This document shows, in pieces, positions 2,800-32,045 of a stretch of DNA of 38,752 nucleotides. The notes beneath the pieces were generated by a model. The model saw nothing but the letters and a program-made list of their open reading frames with translations. It made no database searches and was not told where the DNA came from. The translations under genes were made by a program, and so were the position numbers. Within the stretch, counting starts at the first letter, position 1, and each line of letters begins with the position of its first letter. The stretch is from Octopus sinensis. Taxonomy: Eukaryota. The stretch lies in the NCBI RefSeq assembly GCF_006345805.1, contig NW_021835757.1, positions 1-38,752 of the forward strand. Reading direction: 5' to 3'.

Positions 2800-3415
2800 A
2801 GGGCGGCGAGCTGGCAGAATCGTTAGCACGCCGGGCGAAATGCTGAGCGGTTCAAATTCTACCGAGGTTGATTTTGCCTTTCATACTTTCGGAGTCGATG
2901 AATTAAGTACCAGTTACGCACTTGGGTCGATGTAATCGACTCATCGGATCTTTTCGGTTTGAACGGTAGTTTTTAACATAATTTCTAGGTAACTAAAAAA
3001 TTTTAAACTTCGTATACCGGTAGAATGTGTTTATAAAACATCTTTTTCTCTTGGCTTTATTGAGAAAATTCTATAGTTTGTAAGATAATTGTCGTTGTTT
3101 TTCTTCAATTTCTGCAATTTCAACCAATCACTGACGTCTATTGAGGTAAAAAAAAATATTCTGTGCCGTATGAATATGTCCCTCGTTTAAGAAACAGATT
3201 GGGTTTATTTACATTTGTGAAGAAGAAAAGATACCTTCCCCCCACCCCTAACCCTAACCCTAAAACAGATTGAAATGCAATAGATCGATACTAGGATCAT
3301 AATTATGGGTGACAATTTCATATGACACCGCTAGAAAAAACTGCCGTTCAAACCGAAAAGATCCGACTCATCCCCTCCTCCAATAAACTCCTGCCCTTGT
3401 GGAAAAATTTGAAAC

Positions 3416-3465: not shown

Positions 3466-3470
<5 letters not shown>

Positions 3471-3743
3471 TATCTTGTTTTTATCATTTACTTTCTCTGC
3501 ACTACCGGGCGCAGCTCTGTGTGCCTTGGGTATGTGTTCTGGTTTGTAGTGGTGCTCTTACTTTTACAGTATTGAAAGTGTTTTACGTAGGATGTGTGCG
3601 GTGCCTAGTAGTGTTATTTTCTGTATGATATATATACTTGTAAGTCCTGGTGTTTTTGTTATGTATTTGTCAGAATGTTTTTTTTTATCGTACCTAATGA
3701 GCCTACTATGATAGGAATTATTTCTGTTTTTAAGCCCCACATT
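3466..3743 (-). mobile_element. R4/Dong-like LINE 3' fragment
   Basis: KHSDKYITKTPGLTSIYIIQKITLLGTAHILRKTLSIL C-terminus followed by a 3' UTR and (TAA)n. Confidence 0.8.
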
Positions 3744-4183
3744 CAACCATATGTGCGAGACAGGGTGATCTCATATCAAGAGAAACAGCGCATAACCTTG
3801 CAGGTGGCGCCCAGTTAGAATTTTCTTCAGATCGAGTAGCCCATCCCGCTGAAAAGGTCCCTGAATAAGGGTTGTTTAAGGATGTTGAACGAAACACCCA
3901 TGTTTCCAAAGGCGAATTATTTAAACCCCAAAGAATTCCTCTCAACACATGGCTATGATGCTCACCCACTACTTCCGCTCGTGATCAGAGATGCACATAT
4001 TGTCAGCCACTAAGGGACATGCTCAACTGGTTATGGTTAAACAATTGACAAGCAAAACTGACAAGCAGAATATTTACTGTAGCTCATCTTTTATACCAGG
4101 ACAAAACAATGTACATGATAACACTGCCAATCAGTTAAGATCAGAAGCCATGAGAGTCACTATCTGGTACTGCATCAGGGCAT
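3744..4183. mobile_element. ~550-nt element, partial copy fused to a LINE 3' fragment
   Basis: Matches the family from caaccatatgtgcg to gcatcagggcat; directly joined to 3466-3743. Confidence 0.85.
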
Positions 4184-4204
4184 TTATTATTATTATTATT
4201 ATTA

Positions 4205-4281
<77 letters not shown>

Positions 4282-4745
4282 GAGTGAGAGAGCAGTTCAT
4301 GCCATCAAAGTGACACTGGGGTAAAATATACGAAGCCCAGTATACCCATCATGACTACCCGTCTGATAAGGGTACACTAGGCACATGCATCACAACCATA
4401 TGTGCGCAACAGGGTGATCTCATATCAAGATAAACAGCACATGACCATACAGGTGGGGCCCAGTTAGAAATTTCTTCAGGTTGAGTAGCCCATCCCGCTC
4501 AAAAGGTCCCTGAATAAGGGTTGTTTAAGGATGTTGAAAGAACCACCCATGTTTCCAGAGGTGAATTATTCAAACCCCAAGAATCCCTCTCAACACATGG
4601 CTATGATGCACCCCCACTACTTCTGCTCGTGGTCAGAGATGCACATATCGTCAGCCACTAAGGGACATGCTCAACTGGTTAAGGTCAAACAACTGACAAG
4701 CAAATCTGTGGTATTGGGCAGAATATTTGCTGTAGCCCATCTTTT
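4282..4745. mobile_element. ~550-nt element, partial copy fused to the GC-rich segment
   Basis: Matches the family up to gcccatctttt, then switches abruptly to unrelated GC-rich sequence. Confidence 0.85.
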
Positions 4746-6176
4746 CGGAGCCCGTCAATCCTCTGAAGCCCCTCTTCGCCATTGGGCTTCAGCCTCGCCA
4801 TGCATGATGGCTCATTTTTGTGCTGCACATCGGTGGTTAGGTGAGGAATGACGCCCTGGTACTACCTTGTCGCGGTAAGAGAGCTTGAGCCCCTCGAGCG
4901 GCGGGGGGCGCTCGATGCTTGTCCCTCCCGTAAGAGGGTGACCAAATGTACCGAAGCGCATGCTGGGTCTTAGGCATACGCGGGATCGAGATGCTGAGTG
5001 GGTCATCTCGAAGTAGCAAAAACCCCACCCCGCGGGTTGACCGGCCGGGGCTTCCTGCGGCCTGCGAACCGGCCACCTGGCGCCAGAGGCGAGTGAAGGT
5101 CCGTTGCCGAGATCCGTTAACGCGTTGAACGTCGGTAGGCCGTCTCAAGCTGCCCCAGTTGGCTTCGAATAGGGGGCGGTCGTCCGGAATCCGCTGAGGC
5201 GTCGAACCGGCAAGCGGCCCAGTTACCTGGCGGCCCCGGTGGCACCGTCCCACCTTAATACACCGGGCGTTGAGGCAAGTGCGTGTAAGGGCGAAGTGTA
5301 TTCGGGTTCACGTAAGCTCGGAGCGTGGCTACCTGGACGCGTGGCCTGTCCACAAAAGTCGGAGGTCCCGCAATTGTCCGTAGGTAGAACCTCACCATAC
5401 CCATAGTGGACGGGTGTTAATGTGAGGGTACGTGTTCTGCGATGCGCAGTAACCTCTGCAATAGACAGCCACCTCTTCACCACACCAATAATAGCCGCAC
5501 TTTGGGATGGTCAGATGGGTCCGGCAAGCGCGCACCCTCCGGCGCATGGTGGCACCGTCCACTTAAAACACCGAGCGTTCGGGTAAGGTTATGATCCGCG
5601 CATCGAGGGGACAAGCAGCCAGTCCCGGCGGATGGATTCACCCCCTGGTCGCGTGGCTTTGTCCACGAAAGTCGGGGCCCTGCATGATTCCTTGCTGGTC
5701 CGCTCGGGGACATGTAGAAAATCGGCGGTGGCGCTGCCCACCTAAATAACCGGAGCATCCCGGGAGGGGCAATCCTATTCCTAGGGTGAGTGGCACCGAC
5801 CACTATAACACACCGGCGTCGTGAGCCAGATGACCCCCGCCGCGGTGGACACGCTCTCAGTTCACTTAGGTGGGGAAGCTCTACTCCTCGGCGGGTGGCT
5901 GCCGTCTCCACCTTAATACACCGGCACCCCGGGTTCCCTCTCGTCTATGAATTCGGTTGCTGGGCGGGGGACTAGGTCCCGGGGAGGTGACTGCGGTCAC
6001 CGAACGTAGACGCCCTGGTGCGCGGCCATAAAAAAAATATCTCAAGGTCCCCCGCTGGGGTCTCTGCGGCGCTTGAGTGGGGTCTGCCTCGTAAGCGGCC
6101 TGCACACGGGAGTGGCCGGCGTCGAGAGAGCTTCCGACTTCGACCGACCCCTCTTGTGAGCCCCGCCTCCTGCCCC
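4746..6176. other. GC-rich, highly structured non-coding segment with repeated GTGGC-loop-CCAC motifs
   Basis: Sharp compositional contrast with the flanks, many local inverted repeats and seven related motifs; no credible protein in the six-frame track. Confidence 0.6.
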
Positions 6177-6211
6177 TTATTATCATTATTATTATTATTA
6201 TTATATTATTA

Positions 6212-6253
<42 letters not shown>

Positions 6254-6688: not shown

Positions 6689-8930
6689 TGTAGAAGGAAA
6701 GGCAAAAATAAGGACGCTCTTACCTCTAGTTGAAATCGGAACAGAATATCCAGCTTCGGTTCACAAGGATCAGCAGAACTCGTTGGTCGTACTTACACGT
6801 GTACACTACCGCAATCTCTGACCAGAAACTACTCTACCTCTGAGATTCCTTCCATTCGACTGCTCCCCTCAAAATCCTAACAAAGAAAGACGCTATTCAA
6901 ACGCCCTGCTTCTTGACATGATATCACTGCTCCTCGCTTTCAGGCCCGACGTTTCCCTTATCTCCTCCACCTACCCTCCAAAATAAAGATCACTGCGCTT
7001 CTATCCCATTTCAAAGTTGTCCATCTACCTGGCAGGGTGGCGTACCCTTTGTGATCTTCGCACGGTCATGGAGCTGGCCTCACCCTCTCCTTCGTCATCA
7101 GAGGAGCTAACAATCATACGAACATCCAAGATATGACGCGGCGTTCCACCCACTGTTATATTATTCCAAGCGTTAGCAGTCACCCTTCCTTTCTATCACT
7201 GAGTTGTGCACCGTGCATTAGGCGGCTTCACCCACACTTTGTCTCTGATCTGAACAGTTGCAAACCCTTCCACTTCTGACATCGACACACTTGGGTGTTT
7301 CCATTCGTACTGGAATATGGCTCTTGGCGGGATCGACTTTTCAGCTTGTCTGACCCTGGACATGTTGTATAAAAAAAACCTCAACGGGGGAGATTGGCCT
7401 CATCTCAGCCATGGCTTTGACTGTGCGATGGTGATGTCCCCATTTCCATAATGGAGGCGCGTGGCTTAGTGATTAGGGTGTTGGACTCATGATCGTATGA
7501 TTGTTGTTCCTGGACCGGGCGACGCGTTATGTTCTTGAGCAAAACACTTCATTTCACGTTGCTCCAATCCACTCAACTGGCAAAAATGGATAATCCTGCG
7601 GCGGACCGGCGGACCGGCGGACCATCCAGGGGGAGAATTTATACGCCATGGAAACCGTAAAGCCGGCCATTATGTGTCGGCATGACTCGAGAAGATACGT
7701 TTACCTTTATTTCCACTGGTCCAGTATGCGGTTCTGAAGAGTCATCTGATGTTCCACCTCTTGATCAGCTTCTTCAGCTACTTCGAACGAAACACCATGC
7801 TGTGGTTCATCAACAGCTCATCCACTGGCTCCCTTTCCACGAATACTGTATTCAGTGCCTCTGCAATTTCGGCACAGTCTCCGTCCTGATTTCCCTCCAT
7901 ATCGCTATTCGCCTTGGCCCACAGTCAACCATTGAAAGGTACAGTCTTCCCCGATATACGTTACGTTCATCGCTAGCCTCTTCTAGTCTTCCTCCACGCG
8001 AATCTTTCCTGTTTCGTGCACACCCGACGCGGGGTCGAATGACTGGCACCTTTTTCAACTTAGAGCTAGCTTCCGAACACTCTCCCTGGTCACATCAAGG
8101 CAACTTTCGTGACCCAAGATAGAGTCCTACCAACTCCCATGGGAGGCATATTATACAGCCTCCTCAGTTTTGGGTCCTCCAGCCGATACGCTGCAGCCAC
8201 ACCACTCAATAGATCATTGGTCACTTCTAGCCAGTGATTTTTACCTTATCTTTTTCTGAGGGCACAAAAACTACTTGCAACTTCAGATCAAACTCAGCAG
8301 CTAGCTCTCTCGGGATTCCCAGGCACCGCTTTATCATTTCCGTGGCCTCTTCCATGCAGATCCTCTTCTGGTTGGTAATCACCGATGCCATCCATCCCCG
8401 TACTCCAAATCTCGACAGCATGCAGTCTTCATCTCAGCGCTGGGTTCAAACCCTTTAACAGCGTCCAGTTCAGCTACATTGATGTGGTTGTCGTCATCTT
8501 TCCTCCTAAGCCACGCTGTGTCTTCCACCTCAACACCTCCCATTTCCAGAATGACTCCTATTGCTATGCTACTCGCGTCACACCACACGATCCCTTTTTC
8601 TGTTTCAGGCATATACCAACTGCCTTTCATCGGATCCTTCGCTCTCGCTCTCTTCAAAGCATCTTGCATCATTGTAACAGTCTTCTCTCTCACTTTATCA
8701 CCCCAGTTCATTCGTTCAACTCACTTCTTGATGTAGCTACATGCCGTTCGGAGCCACCCAGCAACAGGATAGGGTCCCACCAGCTACCCACACATCGAGA
8801 ACAACTCTCATCTATTCATATCCTTACACAGGTCTGGGATTTGATTTCCTCTCCGAAACACGAACCTATCTGCTTTATCTTTTCGAACCTGTGTCCCAAC
8901 ACCGTTCCTCCTTCTATAACCTCCGATGAC
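6689..8930 (-). mobile_element. Degenerate Ty3/Gypsy-like LTR retrotransposon (RNase H, integrase, PPT, 3' LTR)
   Basis: WCDASSIAIGVILE...HINVAELDAV (RNase H); YLSMVDCGP and FRTAYWTSGN (integrase); QIRDKVWVKPPNARCTTQ; RRSQRVRHPAR end of pol; purine tract at about 6961-6980; LTR about 6689-6960 ending TACA. Confidence 0.75.
7453..7712 (+). mobile_element. tRNA-derived CORE-type SINE inserted in the Gypsy integrase
   Basis: Head ggaggcgcgtggcttagtg (A-box), CORE-like ttcttgagcaaaacacttcatttc, tttacctttatt tail; interrupts the integrase frame. Confidence 0.65.
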
Positions 8931-8934
8931 TTTG

Positions 8935-9310
8935 CAGGTGTTTTTTTTTTCATCATTCGAAAGGAAGTTATTGCAACGGGAGTTGTTTCTGTTTCCAGTC
9001 TTGATACACTGGTTATCTTTATTTCAATATCTTTACATTTGGATAATCTCCCTATTTCTTTTAGTATTACATTATTGCCTGTTGGAAGTGACTAGGAGAT
9101 ATTTCTTTTACTGGTGGTCCTCGATATTGACAATATCCAAACTATTCTCCTAAACTGTCGTGTCTGTGTGAATTATATCCCAGTTTATAGCCACTTTTTC
9201 ATTTACTGCGACATTTTAAATTTATGCATATGCTAATACAATCGTCTTTTTTCTCTGTCAGTATTTCACAATGCTAGGTAATTCCAGTTTATGAGAGATC
9301 TAGAAACAAT
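8935..9310 (-). mobile_element. Old degenerate R4/Dong-like REL fragment
   Basis: Minus frame KEIGRLSKCKDIEIKITSVSRLETETTPVAITSFRMMKK aligns by eye with the KE.EKL.KYKDL.IE...W.LK..TIPV..GALGMIKK motif of the other copies. Confidence 0.55.
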
Positions 9311-17451: not shown

Positions 17452-18303
17452 CGGCGAACTGGCAGAAACTTTAGCACGCCGGGCGAAATGCGTAGCCGTA
17501 CTTCGTCTGCCGTTACGTTCTGAGTTCAAATTCCACCAAGGTCGACTTCGCCTATCATCCTTTCGGGGTCGATAAATTAAGTACCAGTTACGCACTGGGG
17601 TCGATATAATCGACTTAATCCGTCTGTCTGTCCTTGTTTGTCCCCTCTATGTTTAGCCCCTTGTGGGTAGTAAAGAAATAAGAAACGTTAGCACGCCGGA
17701 CGAAATGCTTAGTGGTATTTCGTCTGTCGTTACGTTCTGAGTTCAAATTCCGCCGAGGACGACTTTGCCTTTCATCTTTTCGGGGTCAATAAATTAAGTA
17801 CCAGTTACGCACTGGGGTCGATATAATCGACTTGATCCGTTTGTCTGTCCTTGTTTGTCCTCTCTGTGTTTAGACCCTTGTGGGTAGTAAAGAAATAGGT
17901 ATTTCGTCTGCCGTTACGTTCTGAGTTCAAATTCTGCCGAGGTCGACTTTGCCTTTCATCCTTTCGGGGTCGATTAAATAAGTACCAGTTACGCACTGGG
18001 GTCGATATAATTGACTTAATCCGTTTGTCTGTCCTTGTTTGTCCGCTCTATGTTTAGCCCCTTCTGGGCAATAAAGAAATAAGAAACGTTAGCACGCCGG
18101 ACGAAATGCTTAGCGATATTTCGTCTGTCGTTACGTTGTGAGTTCAAATTCCGCCGAGGTCGACTTGGCCTTTCATCCTTTCGGGATCGATTAAATAAGT
18201 ACCAGATACGCATTGGGGTCGATACAATCGACTTAATCCGTTTGTCTGTCCTTGTTTGTCCTCTCTGTGTTTAGCCCCTTGTGGGTAGTAAAGAAATAGG
18301 TAT
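17452..18303 (+). mobile_element. Head-to-tail tetramer of SINE family A
   Basis: Four units (about 17452-17681, 17682-17898, 17899-18081, 18082-18303), each ending ...aaagaaata. Confidence 0.85.
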
Positions 18304-19139
18304 TTATTTCCGCATTTTGAATAAAAATAAAATCCCGTCTTAGTTTCAGGAGACGGGGGTAATGCTGAAAAACAAGTTGTGTAAAAAGATTTGTGGGATC
18401 TCATACATTTTGTGCCTATGCATTTCTGGACTTTATTTTTTTACCCCTCATTTTCACCATTTTCCTGGAAACTTTCTTTGTGTGTGAGCCCGCCAAAATG
18501 GATGAGCTCGCACACATGCATACTGACACACGTCACAAGATGAAATTATGATGTGTGTCAGTATTTACGTGTGCAAGCCTATCAATTTCTTTACATATTA
18601 AATTCCGATAAAATCGTAATCTACATCATCTGAAAAATATTTATAGAAAATTCGTTACAAAATGGCCATTTTGCTAGAAGTTAAGAGGAAACAAACTCGA
18701 CTCATGTGAATTTTTCAAAGCTTCTCTCTCCATCTTCGGAGAAAACTATTTATAACAAATTCCGATATAATCAGATTCTGGTCCATCTGAAGCATATTTG
18801 TAAAAGAATGTCATTAATAAATATCCATTTTTCTGGATTTTATGAGGAAACAAAGTTGGTGAAGCACGTTTGTATAGATATGTTCAACGTGTCTTCCCTC
18901 ATATCTATATTTTACAGAGATTTTTAACAAAAGCATTCCACTACTATTCTTTCGTATTGTGGTAGATCTGACCTTTCCATTATTGAAACTTCTAAGGTGC
19001 TTAAATTCAAGATTGCTCTTTCTGCGAATTGTATTGTTTTTATGTTTTGTCCACAACATTATTCTCTATGGGAAGATGGCATTCCAATCTCATTTCCAGA
19101 CATCTCATATAGCGTATGTATGGGTGGAAGGATGCATGT

Positions 19140-23030: not shown

Positions 23031-23180
23031 AAAAGAGTGTTCAAGATATAATACAGCTTAAATATTTCATAATCTGTGATTCTGATAGTCACGTACGTCA
23101 CGCGAGAAGGCGTTTTCTTTATATTTTCTCTCTTATTTATCTTTTTTTTTTGTTTTTGTTTGTTTCAGTCAAAACCCAAG

Positions 23181-23343
23181 ATGACTACAAATGTTGAAGA
23201 AGCGAAAATCCCTAAAGACACTGACGCCATGTCACGAGGCAGTTGGGACAGTAAAATTGAATTCATCCTCGCCTGTATTGGCTATTCCGTTGGATTAGGC
23301 AATGTGTGGCGTTTCCCGTACTTAGTTTTCAAGAACGGAGGTG
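23181..23343 (+). CDS. SLC6 (neurotransmitter:sodium symporter) amino-acid transporter, glycine/proline-transporter-like, coding exon 1
   Basis: Acceptor tttcag ends at 23168 and ATG is at 23181. Translates [54 protein letters not shown], the SLC6 TM1 signature with G rather than the monoamine-transporter D. Donor G|gtaag, phase 1. Confidence 0.95.
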
Positions 23344-23602
23344 GTAAGTAAAAGGTGGTAGTAATTTGCATAATTAAAATATATAACAAATTATGCAAAT
23401 TATTATACAACTGACCAAAACTTTTTGCAACTACATATGTAAATTAAAGCAAATCATAATCGCTGATGATGTTCAATAATACCGAAACATGACTGCAACC
23501 CTCACTGCGATTGCTAATAGAAGACATCCATATTTTTTATTTATGAAATGAATTATTTCACTGAAATTATCTCTCCTTTCCTTTAAGAATCTAAAACATT
23601 AC

Positions 23603-30271: not shown

Positions 30272-30639
30272 TAGTCTTCTTTTTATCATGTGCTTTCATT
30301 GCACTACCGAGTACAGCTCTGTGTGCCTTGGGTACGTGCTGTGGTTTGTTGTCTTATTTCCATGGCGTGCGGTGCCTAGTAGTGCTATTTTCTGTGTTAT
30401 ACATACTCGTTAGTCCTGGTCTTTTTGTTATGTATTTGTCTGAATATTGTTTTATCATACCTAATGCGCCAACGATGATAGACTCCACTTTCGAGTTACC
30501 TCTATCTCTAGGTTTTTGTATTTTGAAAGTTTCTCTGTTTCTTTTAGAAACATTATCATTTGTTGGTATTGATACATCGATTACAAAGCAACTTTTTTCT
30601 TGGTGATCTCTGACAACTATATTCGGCCTATTGGCTTTA

Positions 30640-30718
<79 letters not shown>

Positions 30719-31064
30719 GGTATATCCCAGAGTATGGTTGCTTTCTCATTTTCTGTGATCTTTTCTGGCGTATACTTATACTATCTTTTTTCTGTTGTTA
30801 TTCCATAGTGTTAGCATAGCTTCCAGTGTATGTAGGTCCCAACTTTGTCGTGTCTGTGAATATATTCCTTCTTAGCCAGGACTGGGCAGTCAGAGACAAT
30901 GATTTATTAGCTTAAGTAAGGAAGACCAAAGTGGTATTAACGTACACGAAGTAGTCTTCGCTGGGAGTTATGGTTTTGTTCAGTATGATATCGGTTTCCG
31001 TTGAATTCATATTTTCGCCGCTGTTTAGTAACGTTTCATTACCTGTGAATGATAATAAAAAAGA

Positions 31065-31119
<55 letters not shown>

Positions 31120-32045
31120 TAATAATATTGGATTTACCAAAGAAATACAAGTAACTGCAGTTACTTGTATTTCTTTTCATTACATGTTTTTGGTAATTTC
31201 TGGTGGGGAGGCTTTTTTCTTGTGCTGCAGTTAAAATCTTTCAGTCTCTGCTTTGAGTCCTGACCTTCTCAGCCATTGCTGGGATTTTGCTTTGTCTATT
31301 TCTTTTCTGTTTAGTGTAACCCAGTATTTGCCATGAAAGGACTTTTCTTGCTATCGTTTTATCATGATCCCTTGCTGTTCCAGTTTTGGTTTGGCTTTCA
31401 GTTGTTTTACAGCTTTTGTTGTTTCTTCTTTTTCATCATATTTTCTTCATATGATTTCTTTTTGTATTTGTTAGCTTCCTTCAAAACTGAATCCAGTTTT
31501 TTTTTGTTTTGTTCGTGTTTTGTGGCTATTTGTATTTGTTTTCCTTGCTTCTGAAGTAGGTATTTCTGTAGACCTGTGGTGGTTGGGTGATTATTTTGTA
31601 ATAGTTTTTAGCTGTATAAGGCCTCTGTTACCTTCTATAGGTTGAATATAACATTTCTATGTCAGATTTTGCGTGATGCATCCTAAATCCAGCCATTATT
31701 TTTCTTGTTTCCTGTCTGTTTTTGATTAGTTCACTTACAGTCCAGTTAAGAATATTGTACCTGTAACTTATAACTGGGATAGCTAGAGTGTTGATACCTC
31801 TTATTTTGTTTCTCGTACTGAGATCTGTTTTCAGTATTAATCTGATTCGTCTATAGTATTCTTTCATTTGTGTGTGTTGTATCGTGTCTAGTTCATTGAT
31901 TCCTAAGTATGCCTGGCTTTGGTCCAATTCTCTTATTTCTGTACCTAGTGTGATGTTGTTACTCTTAACTAGTTTTCTTCTTTTCTAATTTGCTTTGGCA
32001 CATTTTTCTAAGCCGAATTTCATGTTTATTTCTTTGGTAAATCCA
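30268..32045 (-). mobile_element. 5'-truncated R4/Dong-like LINE (RT end, CCHC, REL), interrupted at 30907-31176 by an inverted host-exon copy
   Basis: FTKEINMKFGLEKCAK; YLGINE...EYYRRIRLILKTDLSTRNKIRGINTLAIPVISY; GLKAETE..AAQEKSLPTRNY; IVSDCPVLAKKEYIHRHDKV; ANRPNIVVRDHQEKSCFVIDVSIP; (TAA)n at both ends. Confidence 0.85.
30907..31147 (-). repeat. Inverted duplicate of SLC6 exon 4 with flanking splice sites
   Basis: Reverse complement of 32027-32414 apart from a shorter microsatellite, a 3-nt deletion and three exon/donor-side substitutions. Confidence 0.95.

Follow-up and report, generated by a model that had tools for sequence, protein, structure and literature searches.

What is a GC-rich, apparently non-coding block of about 1.4 kb doing in an AT-rich part of an octopus genome, and how did it come to lie there? 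The window analysed (the whole stretch of 38,752 nt at the start of Octopus sinensis contig NW_021835757.1) is AT-rich animal DNA, rich in microsatellites and pieces of retroelements, and the block occupies positions 4746..6176. An earlier note made from the sequence alone had described it as abruptly GC-rich and without a credible ORF, and both observations were borne out. The GC content of the block is 0.617 (61.7%) against 0.381 for the whole window, and no Pfam family was found in any of its six read-through frames or in the five longest ORFs that overlap it. Its left edge, 4745/4746, falls within a 553-nt element that is associated with TAA repeats, and its right edge directly abuts a (TTA)n microsatellite at 6177..6252. 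The block had been thought to replace the terminal ~105 nt of this element, which is correct as to the edge lying inside it, although the missing part is 90 nt. The retained CpGs had been taken as a sign of recent arrival; however, the CpG o/e of the block (0.94) is below that of short SINE-type repeats in the same window (1.36–1.54), the window as a whole having 0.81, and this argument was dropped.

Several other features of the window were seen. An exon of a sodium:neurotransmitter symporter (PF00209, E 2e-16) at 23073–23351 on the plus strand represents the host gene of the stretch, and a tandem array of a CpG-rich SINE-type repeat with periods of 184, 217 and 401 lies at 17464–18305. A short telomere-like (CCCTAA)n run is present at 3246 within an unclassified repeat. 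On the minus strand, the region 6700–9100 is a decayed retroelement-like coding region with a match to DUF7047 (E 6e-16), followed by RNase H-/integrase-like words recognised by eye.

We examined whether the block is as densely structured and packed with hairpins as had been supposed. The five hairpins named in the earlier note are all exact reverse complements at the expected places, but stem counts and folding energy of the block as a whole are at the level of dinucleotide shuffles on both strands. Averaged over 33 windows, each 100 nt long, the MFE z-score was −0.21 on the plus strand and −0.01 on the minus strand, with no window and one window, respectively, below −2. Perfect stems of 5, 6, 7 and 8 bp numbered 35, 7, 4 and 2, compared with shuffle means of 31.3, 8.3, 2.1 and 0.6, and these counts were reached by 82, 207, 42 and 36 of 300 shuffles. 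A predicted 8-bp helix at 4812..4851 on the plus strand has an inner pair, 4819:4844, that changes from U-A to C-G on both sides in contigs of three sequencing runs; this two-sided change is a single event, and one of the 16 candidate pairs had an 8-bp helix.

Another kind of signal was found in a repeated motif. Seven copies of an H-type pseudoknot motif lie between 5238 and 5924, all on the plus strand, which fixes the functional strand that had earlier been regarded as unassignable. Each copy has a GTGG/CCAC stem, a loop of 5–9 nt beginning with C, an A-rich linker and CGG. The pattern GTGG-N5-9-CCAC-N4-12-CG[GA] occurs seven times in the block and nowhere outside it on either strand, whereas shuffles gave a mean of 0.11 and a maximum of 3 in 1000, with the limit that the motif was picked post hoc from the sequence. 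When the sequence of stem 1 was left free, the descriptor found six places on the plus strand and none on the minus strand (shuffle mean 0.18; none of 500 shuffles reached six).

The units are of several kinds. Motif 1 (5238..5266) is of type A, with a 5-bp stem 1, a C-A loop, a 3-bp stem 2 and a 9-nt A-rich loop; motif 3 (5548..5574) and motif 5 (5727..5753) are of the same type, and motif 3, in which one of the three stem-2 pairs is mismatched, fails the strict descriptor. Motif 2 (5341..5362) is of type B, with a 4-bp stem 1, a stem 2 containing one G-U pair and a 6-nt loop, as is motif 4 (5652..5676), which has G-U pairs in stem 2. Motif 6 (5789..5816) has the layout of the knot of ScYLV, and in motif 7 (5893..5924) a longer loop is matched by a 5-bp stem 2. 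The knots lie 62–208 nt apart and three units open with GGCAA and a hairpin. A direct-repeat search of the block gave five-copy and three-copy families, and a module of about 170 nt with two knots is present twice: local alignment pairs 5205..5375, which consists of GGCAAG, a hairpin, a type A knot, a spacer and a type B knot (direct-repeat families D2, D3, D5 and D14), with 5515..5690 on the same plus strand. A profile built from all the units recovers six of the seven and reveals no additional one in the window. By eye, a possible eighth, divergent knot was seen at 5985–6010 on the plus strand, with a 5-bp stem containing an A-U change and a 4-nt linker; it was missed by both descriptor and profile.

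Since the seven copies are partly descended by duplication, they are not independent, and their number could in principle be explained without any RNA structure: the repeats may be promoter monomers acting at the DNA level, or a tandem duplication in a GC-rich UTR, with a pseudoknot likeness arising by chance. The clear internal duplication, the folding z-scores near zero and the invariant core of stem 1, whose four pairs are uninformative for structure, would all fit such an explanation. It is the way in which the copies differ that speaks for structure in the array, as far as a comparison of sequences can tell. Stem 2 is paired in 20 of 21 cells on the plus strand and in 17 of 21 on the minus strand. 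The outer pair of stem 1 covaries, being kept in six of seven units with four pair types (permutation P 0.019), and C/U changes opposite G are tolerated on the plus strand only. Loop length ranges from 5 to 9 nt with pairing kept, and stem 2 grows with the loop, reaching 5 bp where the loop has 9 nt. The stem pairs were counted by script, as MAFFT, when used to align the cores, misplaced the register of stem 1. Nested folding programs gave stem 1 as a hairpin in some units only, and the CCGG/GGTG words permit rival pairings. Among variants seen in related contigs from sequencing runs, 1 of 38 shown places lay within knots when 5.0 were expected (P 0.03), in a biased sample of 40 shown rows of 261. 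Summed depth was also higher in knot bins (7 vs 21 bins; P 0.001, 0.001 and 0.06), a difference that contig breaks might account for and that we do not treat as proof.

The closest likeness to a known structure was to luteoviral RNA. An Rfam search, which the earlier note had suggested, gave no family at the gathering threshold anywhere in the window, no rRNA among them, while the best structured matches below gathering were the luteoviral RF_site3 and RF_site1 (E 0.27–2.4). Up to E 10 there were four weak matches, including one microsatellite artefact, and the luteoviral scores were 23.1 and 19.7 (gathering 50) and 19.4 (gathering 40). The unit at 5789 is identical to 15 of the 18 named positions of the ScYLV knot without gaps, the numbering being taken from PMC12621654; elsewhere in the window the highest count, on either strand, is 13, which again is not what a likeness by chance would lead one to expect. 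The bases of the C-G-C triple (C8, G12 and C28 in ScYLV) are present in all seven units, the loop C and its G-C partner pair are invariant in 7/7, and the two neighbouring positions, unpaired in ScYLV, vary. At the sequence level, six of the seven units have the elements of an H-type knot, i.e. a stem 1 of 4–6 bp, a 3-bp stem 2, a short loop 1 and an A-rich loop 2. Taken with the pattern of differences, it is very likely that the array is under selection at the RNA level, and an accidental likeness in DNA-level repeats seems improbable. The predicted fold of each motif, on the plus strand, is a pseudoknot of the polerovirus type.

The P1–P2 frameshift knots of poleroviruses (ScYLV, BWYV and PLRV; Rfam RF01079 and RF01074) share with the units a stem 1 of 4–6 bp, a 3-bp stem 2, a loop-1 C placed for the C-G-C triple and one unpaired base between the stems, and their A-rich loop 2 ending in AC is matched by the type A units. 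They differ in that the block has seven knots in tandem, in an animal genomic repeat with no ORF and no slippery site. No slippery heptamer was found at the right distance upstream of any knot; the only A-run, 6030–6038, is downstream of all of them. With no slippery site before the knots and no overlapping coding signal in the block, a role as frameshift signal seems unlikely.

Small knots in series within a long UTR are characteristic of the upstream pseudoknot domain of tobamoviruses. The 5' UTR of FMDV resembles the block in having several small knots in series, in variable number, within a long UTR (PMC9203018), but this is a likeness by description and not by sequence comparison, and the block showed no sign of a poly(C), an IRES or a tRNA-like end. 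According to the same source, the tandem UTR knots of FMDV aid replication and are required for infectious particles. In flavivirid xrRNAs of subclass 1b (Tamana bat virus type), modules are duplicated as in the block, and the 5' end consists of GGCAA and a hairpin (Table S1 of PMC7527734), as in three of the units. In that class, according to the same paper, the 5' end pairs with the bases that follow P3, and L3 has the 3-3-3 form; the Pk1 pairing was looked for as a G-C pair, present in over 97% of members. The block was not assigned to this class: neither Pk1 nor a P1 complement was seen beyond the third stem, the bases there being UUA or AUA and forming no G-C pair with the upstream GG (by eye); the loops are 5–9 nt rather than 3-3-3, with 1–3 bases before stem 2; and units with an upstream hairpin have extra bases between hairpin and stem. 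The coremin xrRNA (xrRNA-C and its Watson-Crick variant, as described in PMC10321173) likewise combines a short hairpin, a spacer of about 10 nt, a small knot and possibly a downstream hairpin. It was rejected as a model (C and WCC forms), since a YGAD/YGNNAD loop or a loop-1 G was seen by eye in none of the seven units, the loop-1 base being C. That text also reports that the BWYV knot fails to stop Xrn1, which counts against simple nuclease blocking by knots of this type.

We also looked for self-cleaving RNAs. HDV-like, hammerhead, twister and pistol ribozymes gave no Rfam match up to E 10, an HDV descriptor run on the block gave one weak match on the plus strand and none on the minus strand, with no convincing HDV-like ribozyme, and the CTGANGA core does not occur in the block. 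The likenesses to pistol, twister and HDV were thus without support from Rfam or from the HDV descriptor and core search.

How the block was inserted is suggested by its surroundings. The stretch 4282..4745 comprises 464 nt of the 553-nt TAA-associated element, is on the minus strand, is 96% identical to a full copy at 2048–2600 and is without 90 nt of the inferred 5' end. Beyond it lies a (TTA)n/(TAA)n microsatellite (4184..4281), which is the target of Dong/R4-type elements and would, given a minus sense, form the 3' side of the insertion. Fragments of LINEs with a single ORF for reverse transcriptase plus endonuclease are found at 1316–1720, 3570–3742, 8933–9100 and 30402–32041, all on the minus strand; they are 37–76% identical to proteins of 900–1230 aa with PF00078, and three of the four adjoin (TAA)n. 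One of them matches the C-terminal part of reverse transcriptase proteins of 900–1230 aa (27 matches). We read these fragments as R4/Dong type, from the domain order and the TAA target. Given that every one of them lies on the minus strand, insertions targeted to TAA should here have the minus sense, and the same sense is assigned to the 553-nt element because of this orientation and because its well-folding end is on the minus strand. The inferred 3' end of the element (4283–4422, minus strand) folds better than shuffles (z −2.6 and −4.1) and is a candidate recognition signal for the LINE enzyme. A Dong element has been reported from Octopus bimaculoides (PMC9115989).

The whole composite, 4282–6176, is flanked by (TTA)n arrays on both sides, as for an insertion mobilised by a Dong/R4-type element, and the array at 6177..6252 would mark the 5' truncation junction. 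A second chimera, likewise between TAA arrays, lies at 3468–4185 (minus strand). In it about 440 nt from the 553-nt element are fused to the final 275 nt of a LINE of Dong/R4 type, which suggests that template switching is frequent here. PMC12203849 describes R2-type enzymes as making template jumps without homology. The TAA target and the chimeric insertions of the window agree with the R4/Dong and R2 LINEs, R2 having both template jumping and a pseudoknot in its 5' RNA (PMC12203849). In contrast to an ordinary R4/Dong insertion, the block, with its knots on the plus strand, is antisense to the 553-nt element and to the presumed sense of the Dong LINE, so that an antisense template or an inversion is required, and its assignment to a LINE is tentative. 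A template jump by a Dong/R4-type reverse transcriptase best explains this orientation, and capture of the block by a Dong-type enzyme is probable. The earlier note had proposed a structured RNA mobilised by R4/Dong machinery. That proposal is sustained in outline by a non-coding RNA with selected structure, by the minus-strand LINE fragments beside (TAA)n and by the second chimera, but the evidence then offered for it (hairpins and CpG) is at chance level, the signal being the pseudoknot repeat.

To see whether the block has relatives, its words were looked for in sequencing runs. They were present in 20 of 21 listed runs from 12 studies and four organism codes, with shares above 0.2 in four runs. 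Shares were 0.10–0.19 in 16 of the 21 runs, of which only X9 was examined, and the other 15 are not taken as evidence. No RNA run with words of the block was among the 21 listed. Contigs were compared for four of the 21 runs (X1, X2, X3 and X9), organism D being left out. Relatives about 87–100% identical were found in DNA-type runs of three organisms; in X1, X2 and X3 there are several variants per run, from identical down to about 87%, with many indels of 1–2 nt and with other orders of the modules. Joints in the relatives from these three runs include skips 4955>5184, 5277>5320, 5610>5717 and 5741>6064, found in two or three of the runs. They also include a step back of 41 nt (5349>5309) and, once, a joint to the opposite strand (5628/5907); these joints likely represent a diverged family member with fewer modules, together with an inverted copy. 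In X9, whose status as an RNA run is a guess, three long contigs cover most of the block at roughly 93–97% identity, with no cover in the bin 5221–5271, and most of the shown variants of this haplotype are common to contigs of DNA-type runs. X9 gives a weak hint of a transcribed genomic copy. The left junction, 4745/4746, was seen in one X1 contig only, with 28 letters on the short side where the tool minimum is 31, and this contig may derive from the source of the window itself.

The block is not a unit with natural ends. One contig from X9 runs on past 6170 for 255 nt of different sequence, and one from X3 carries 58 nt of different sequence ahead of 4747; since contigs extend past both ends, the block should be a fragment of something at least 1.7 kb long. 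The clean end at (TTA)n that had been noted earlier is therefore real as an edge but is not the end of the family, and the idea of a discrete 1.4-kb module or large non-autonomous element does not agree with relatives that pass both ends and have other module orders. Summed depth over the block is about four orders below that of the 553-nt element and is not a copy number. A depth this low is what one would expect of the far, seldom copied end of a LINE and argues against rDNA, and the family appears to be low in copy. The high GC and CpG and the internal repeats might still suggest an rDNA spacer fragment, as the earlier note had considered, or a contaminant. However, high-depth near-identical contigs at 80% likeness were absent from all four runs examined, which instead contain many diverged variants; no Rfam rRNA match was found in the window; and no match to plasmids or phages was obtained. 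The knot array was looked for in prokaryote genomes and in metagenomes, where all 10 and all 12 loci, respectively, were single chance matches. An origin in rDNA or contamination is therefore very improbable.

If the block is a fragment, the nature of its parent has to be considered. We favour, with somewhat less than even confidence, a long UTR of a low-copy host retroelement, pasted in reverse by the Dong/R4-type reverse transcriptase. A LINE UTR had been mentioned earlier as a mundane alternative; as a guess for the parent it now leads, but its content is unusual. It counts against this reading that no ORF of the parent was seen. In R2, the 5' RNA contains a pseudoknot tied to translation and integration (PMC12203849), and a stable 5' fold has been proposed to protect the RNA (PMC11331408). 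Also against a LINE parent, the coding fragments of the LINEs in the window have 34–40% GC and a CpG of 0.28–0.50, unlike the block with 62% and 0.94.

This composition, unlike that of the host LINE, is one of several features that would suit a parent of viral or satellite origin, with the block being part of its UTR. To date, this layout of knot is known from viruses, and a long UTR with knots in tandem is a design that viruses use (PMC9203018). The modules are duplicated and vary in order, and the orientation would be explained by the fact that viruses produce both strands. The block has no viral ORF or Pfam family, though, and its UpA o/e is 0.93. Searches of viral_contigs, a collection weak for animal RNA viruses, revealed no array: the strict pattern gave no locus and all 55 loci of the loose pattern were single. 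A profile run on 77 loci retrieved from the viral, metagenome and prokaryote collections gave no locus with more than one match, and three descriptor matches within 700 nt were found in none of 67 loci. The haplotype in X9, a small run, shares most of its shown variants with contigs of DNA-type runs, which is easier to reconcile with a genomic source than with a fast-evolving virus. We regard a viral or satellite parent as rather unlikely.

A further possibility is that the block was retrocopied from a long non-coding RNA of the host, encoded by a small gene family, with the knots as its functional modules. This would be consistent with variants common across organisms, with the single long haplotype that spans most of the block in X9 (RNA status guessed) and with the one two-sided change in a helix. 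Yet no Rfam family, B box or telomerase template word was found, a tRNA search was equally negative, and several rearranged variants resemble mobile copies more than a conserved gene. Such a host RNA is a quite unlikely parent. No motif was found in four of the eight supplement files of PMC9115989 (octopus transcriptome; 4.1 million characters), a small part of that source, the remainder of which may contain the family. None of the papers listed by literature searches describes this element, and it may already stand in Repbase/Dfam as an unclassified repeat.

Assuming a retroelement parent, the insertion may have taken place as follows. The enzyme would nick (TAA)n and copy 464 nt from the 3' end of the RNA of the 553-nt element, and would then either jump to the parent RNA or prime on it from a second nick. 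The template would be an antisense transcript of the parent after a jump, or sense RNA if copying began at a second nick. Copying would stop at 6176 and the end would again be joined to TAA repeats, giving, in the minus sense, TAA repeats, the reversed block, the 3' 464 nt of the element and TAA repeats. An independent insertion followed by a deletion is an alternative to a single event. The copy in the window would be a passenger cut at both ends. As to function, each knot, with its short G-C stem, triple-forming C and A-rich loop in the minor groove, would be a compact unit that is hard to unwind. Placed in series outside an ORF, the knots would not serve as frameshift signals, but may act as roadblocks or protein handles that gate the passage of ribosomes, or may protect or package the RNA of the element.

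A bolder possibility, which we consider doubtful, is that the block comes from an undescribed octopus RNA replicon (a virus, satellite or retroelement lineage) whose array of polerovirus-type knots, several with a conserved 5' GGCAA-hairpin extension, would constitute a new class of ribosome- or nuclease-blocking RNA, archived repeatedly in germ-line DNA of several species by Dong reverse transcriptase. Luteoviral knots serve as a model for frameshift elements and are known singly, inside the ORFs of plant viruses. Seven such knots in the non-coding RNA of an animal genomic repeat would, if the prediction is true, mean that the same fold is used for something else, and would provide natural variants with which the role of the knot could be tested in the absence of a slippery site. 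Should the parent be a LINE, the finding would add a structured UTR module to the restriction-enzyme-type retroelements, which are used as gene insertion tools; if it is viral, the block would preserve, within a genome, the non-coding portion of an unknown cephalopod virus, a kind of record invisible to protein-based searches for viral inserts.
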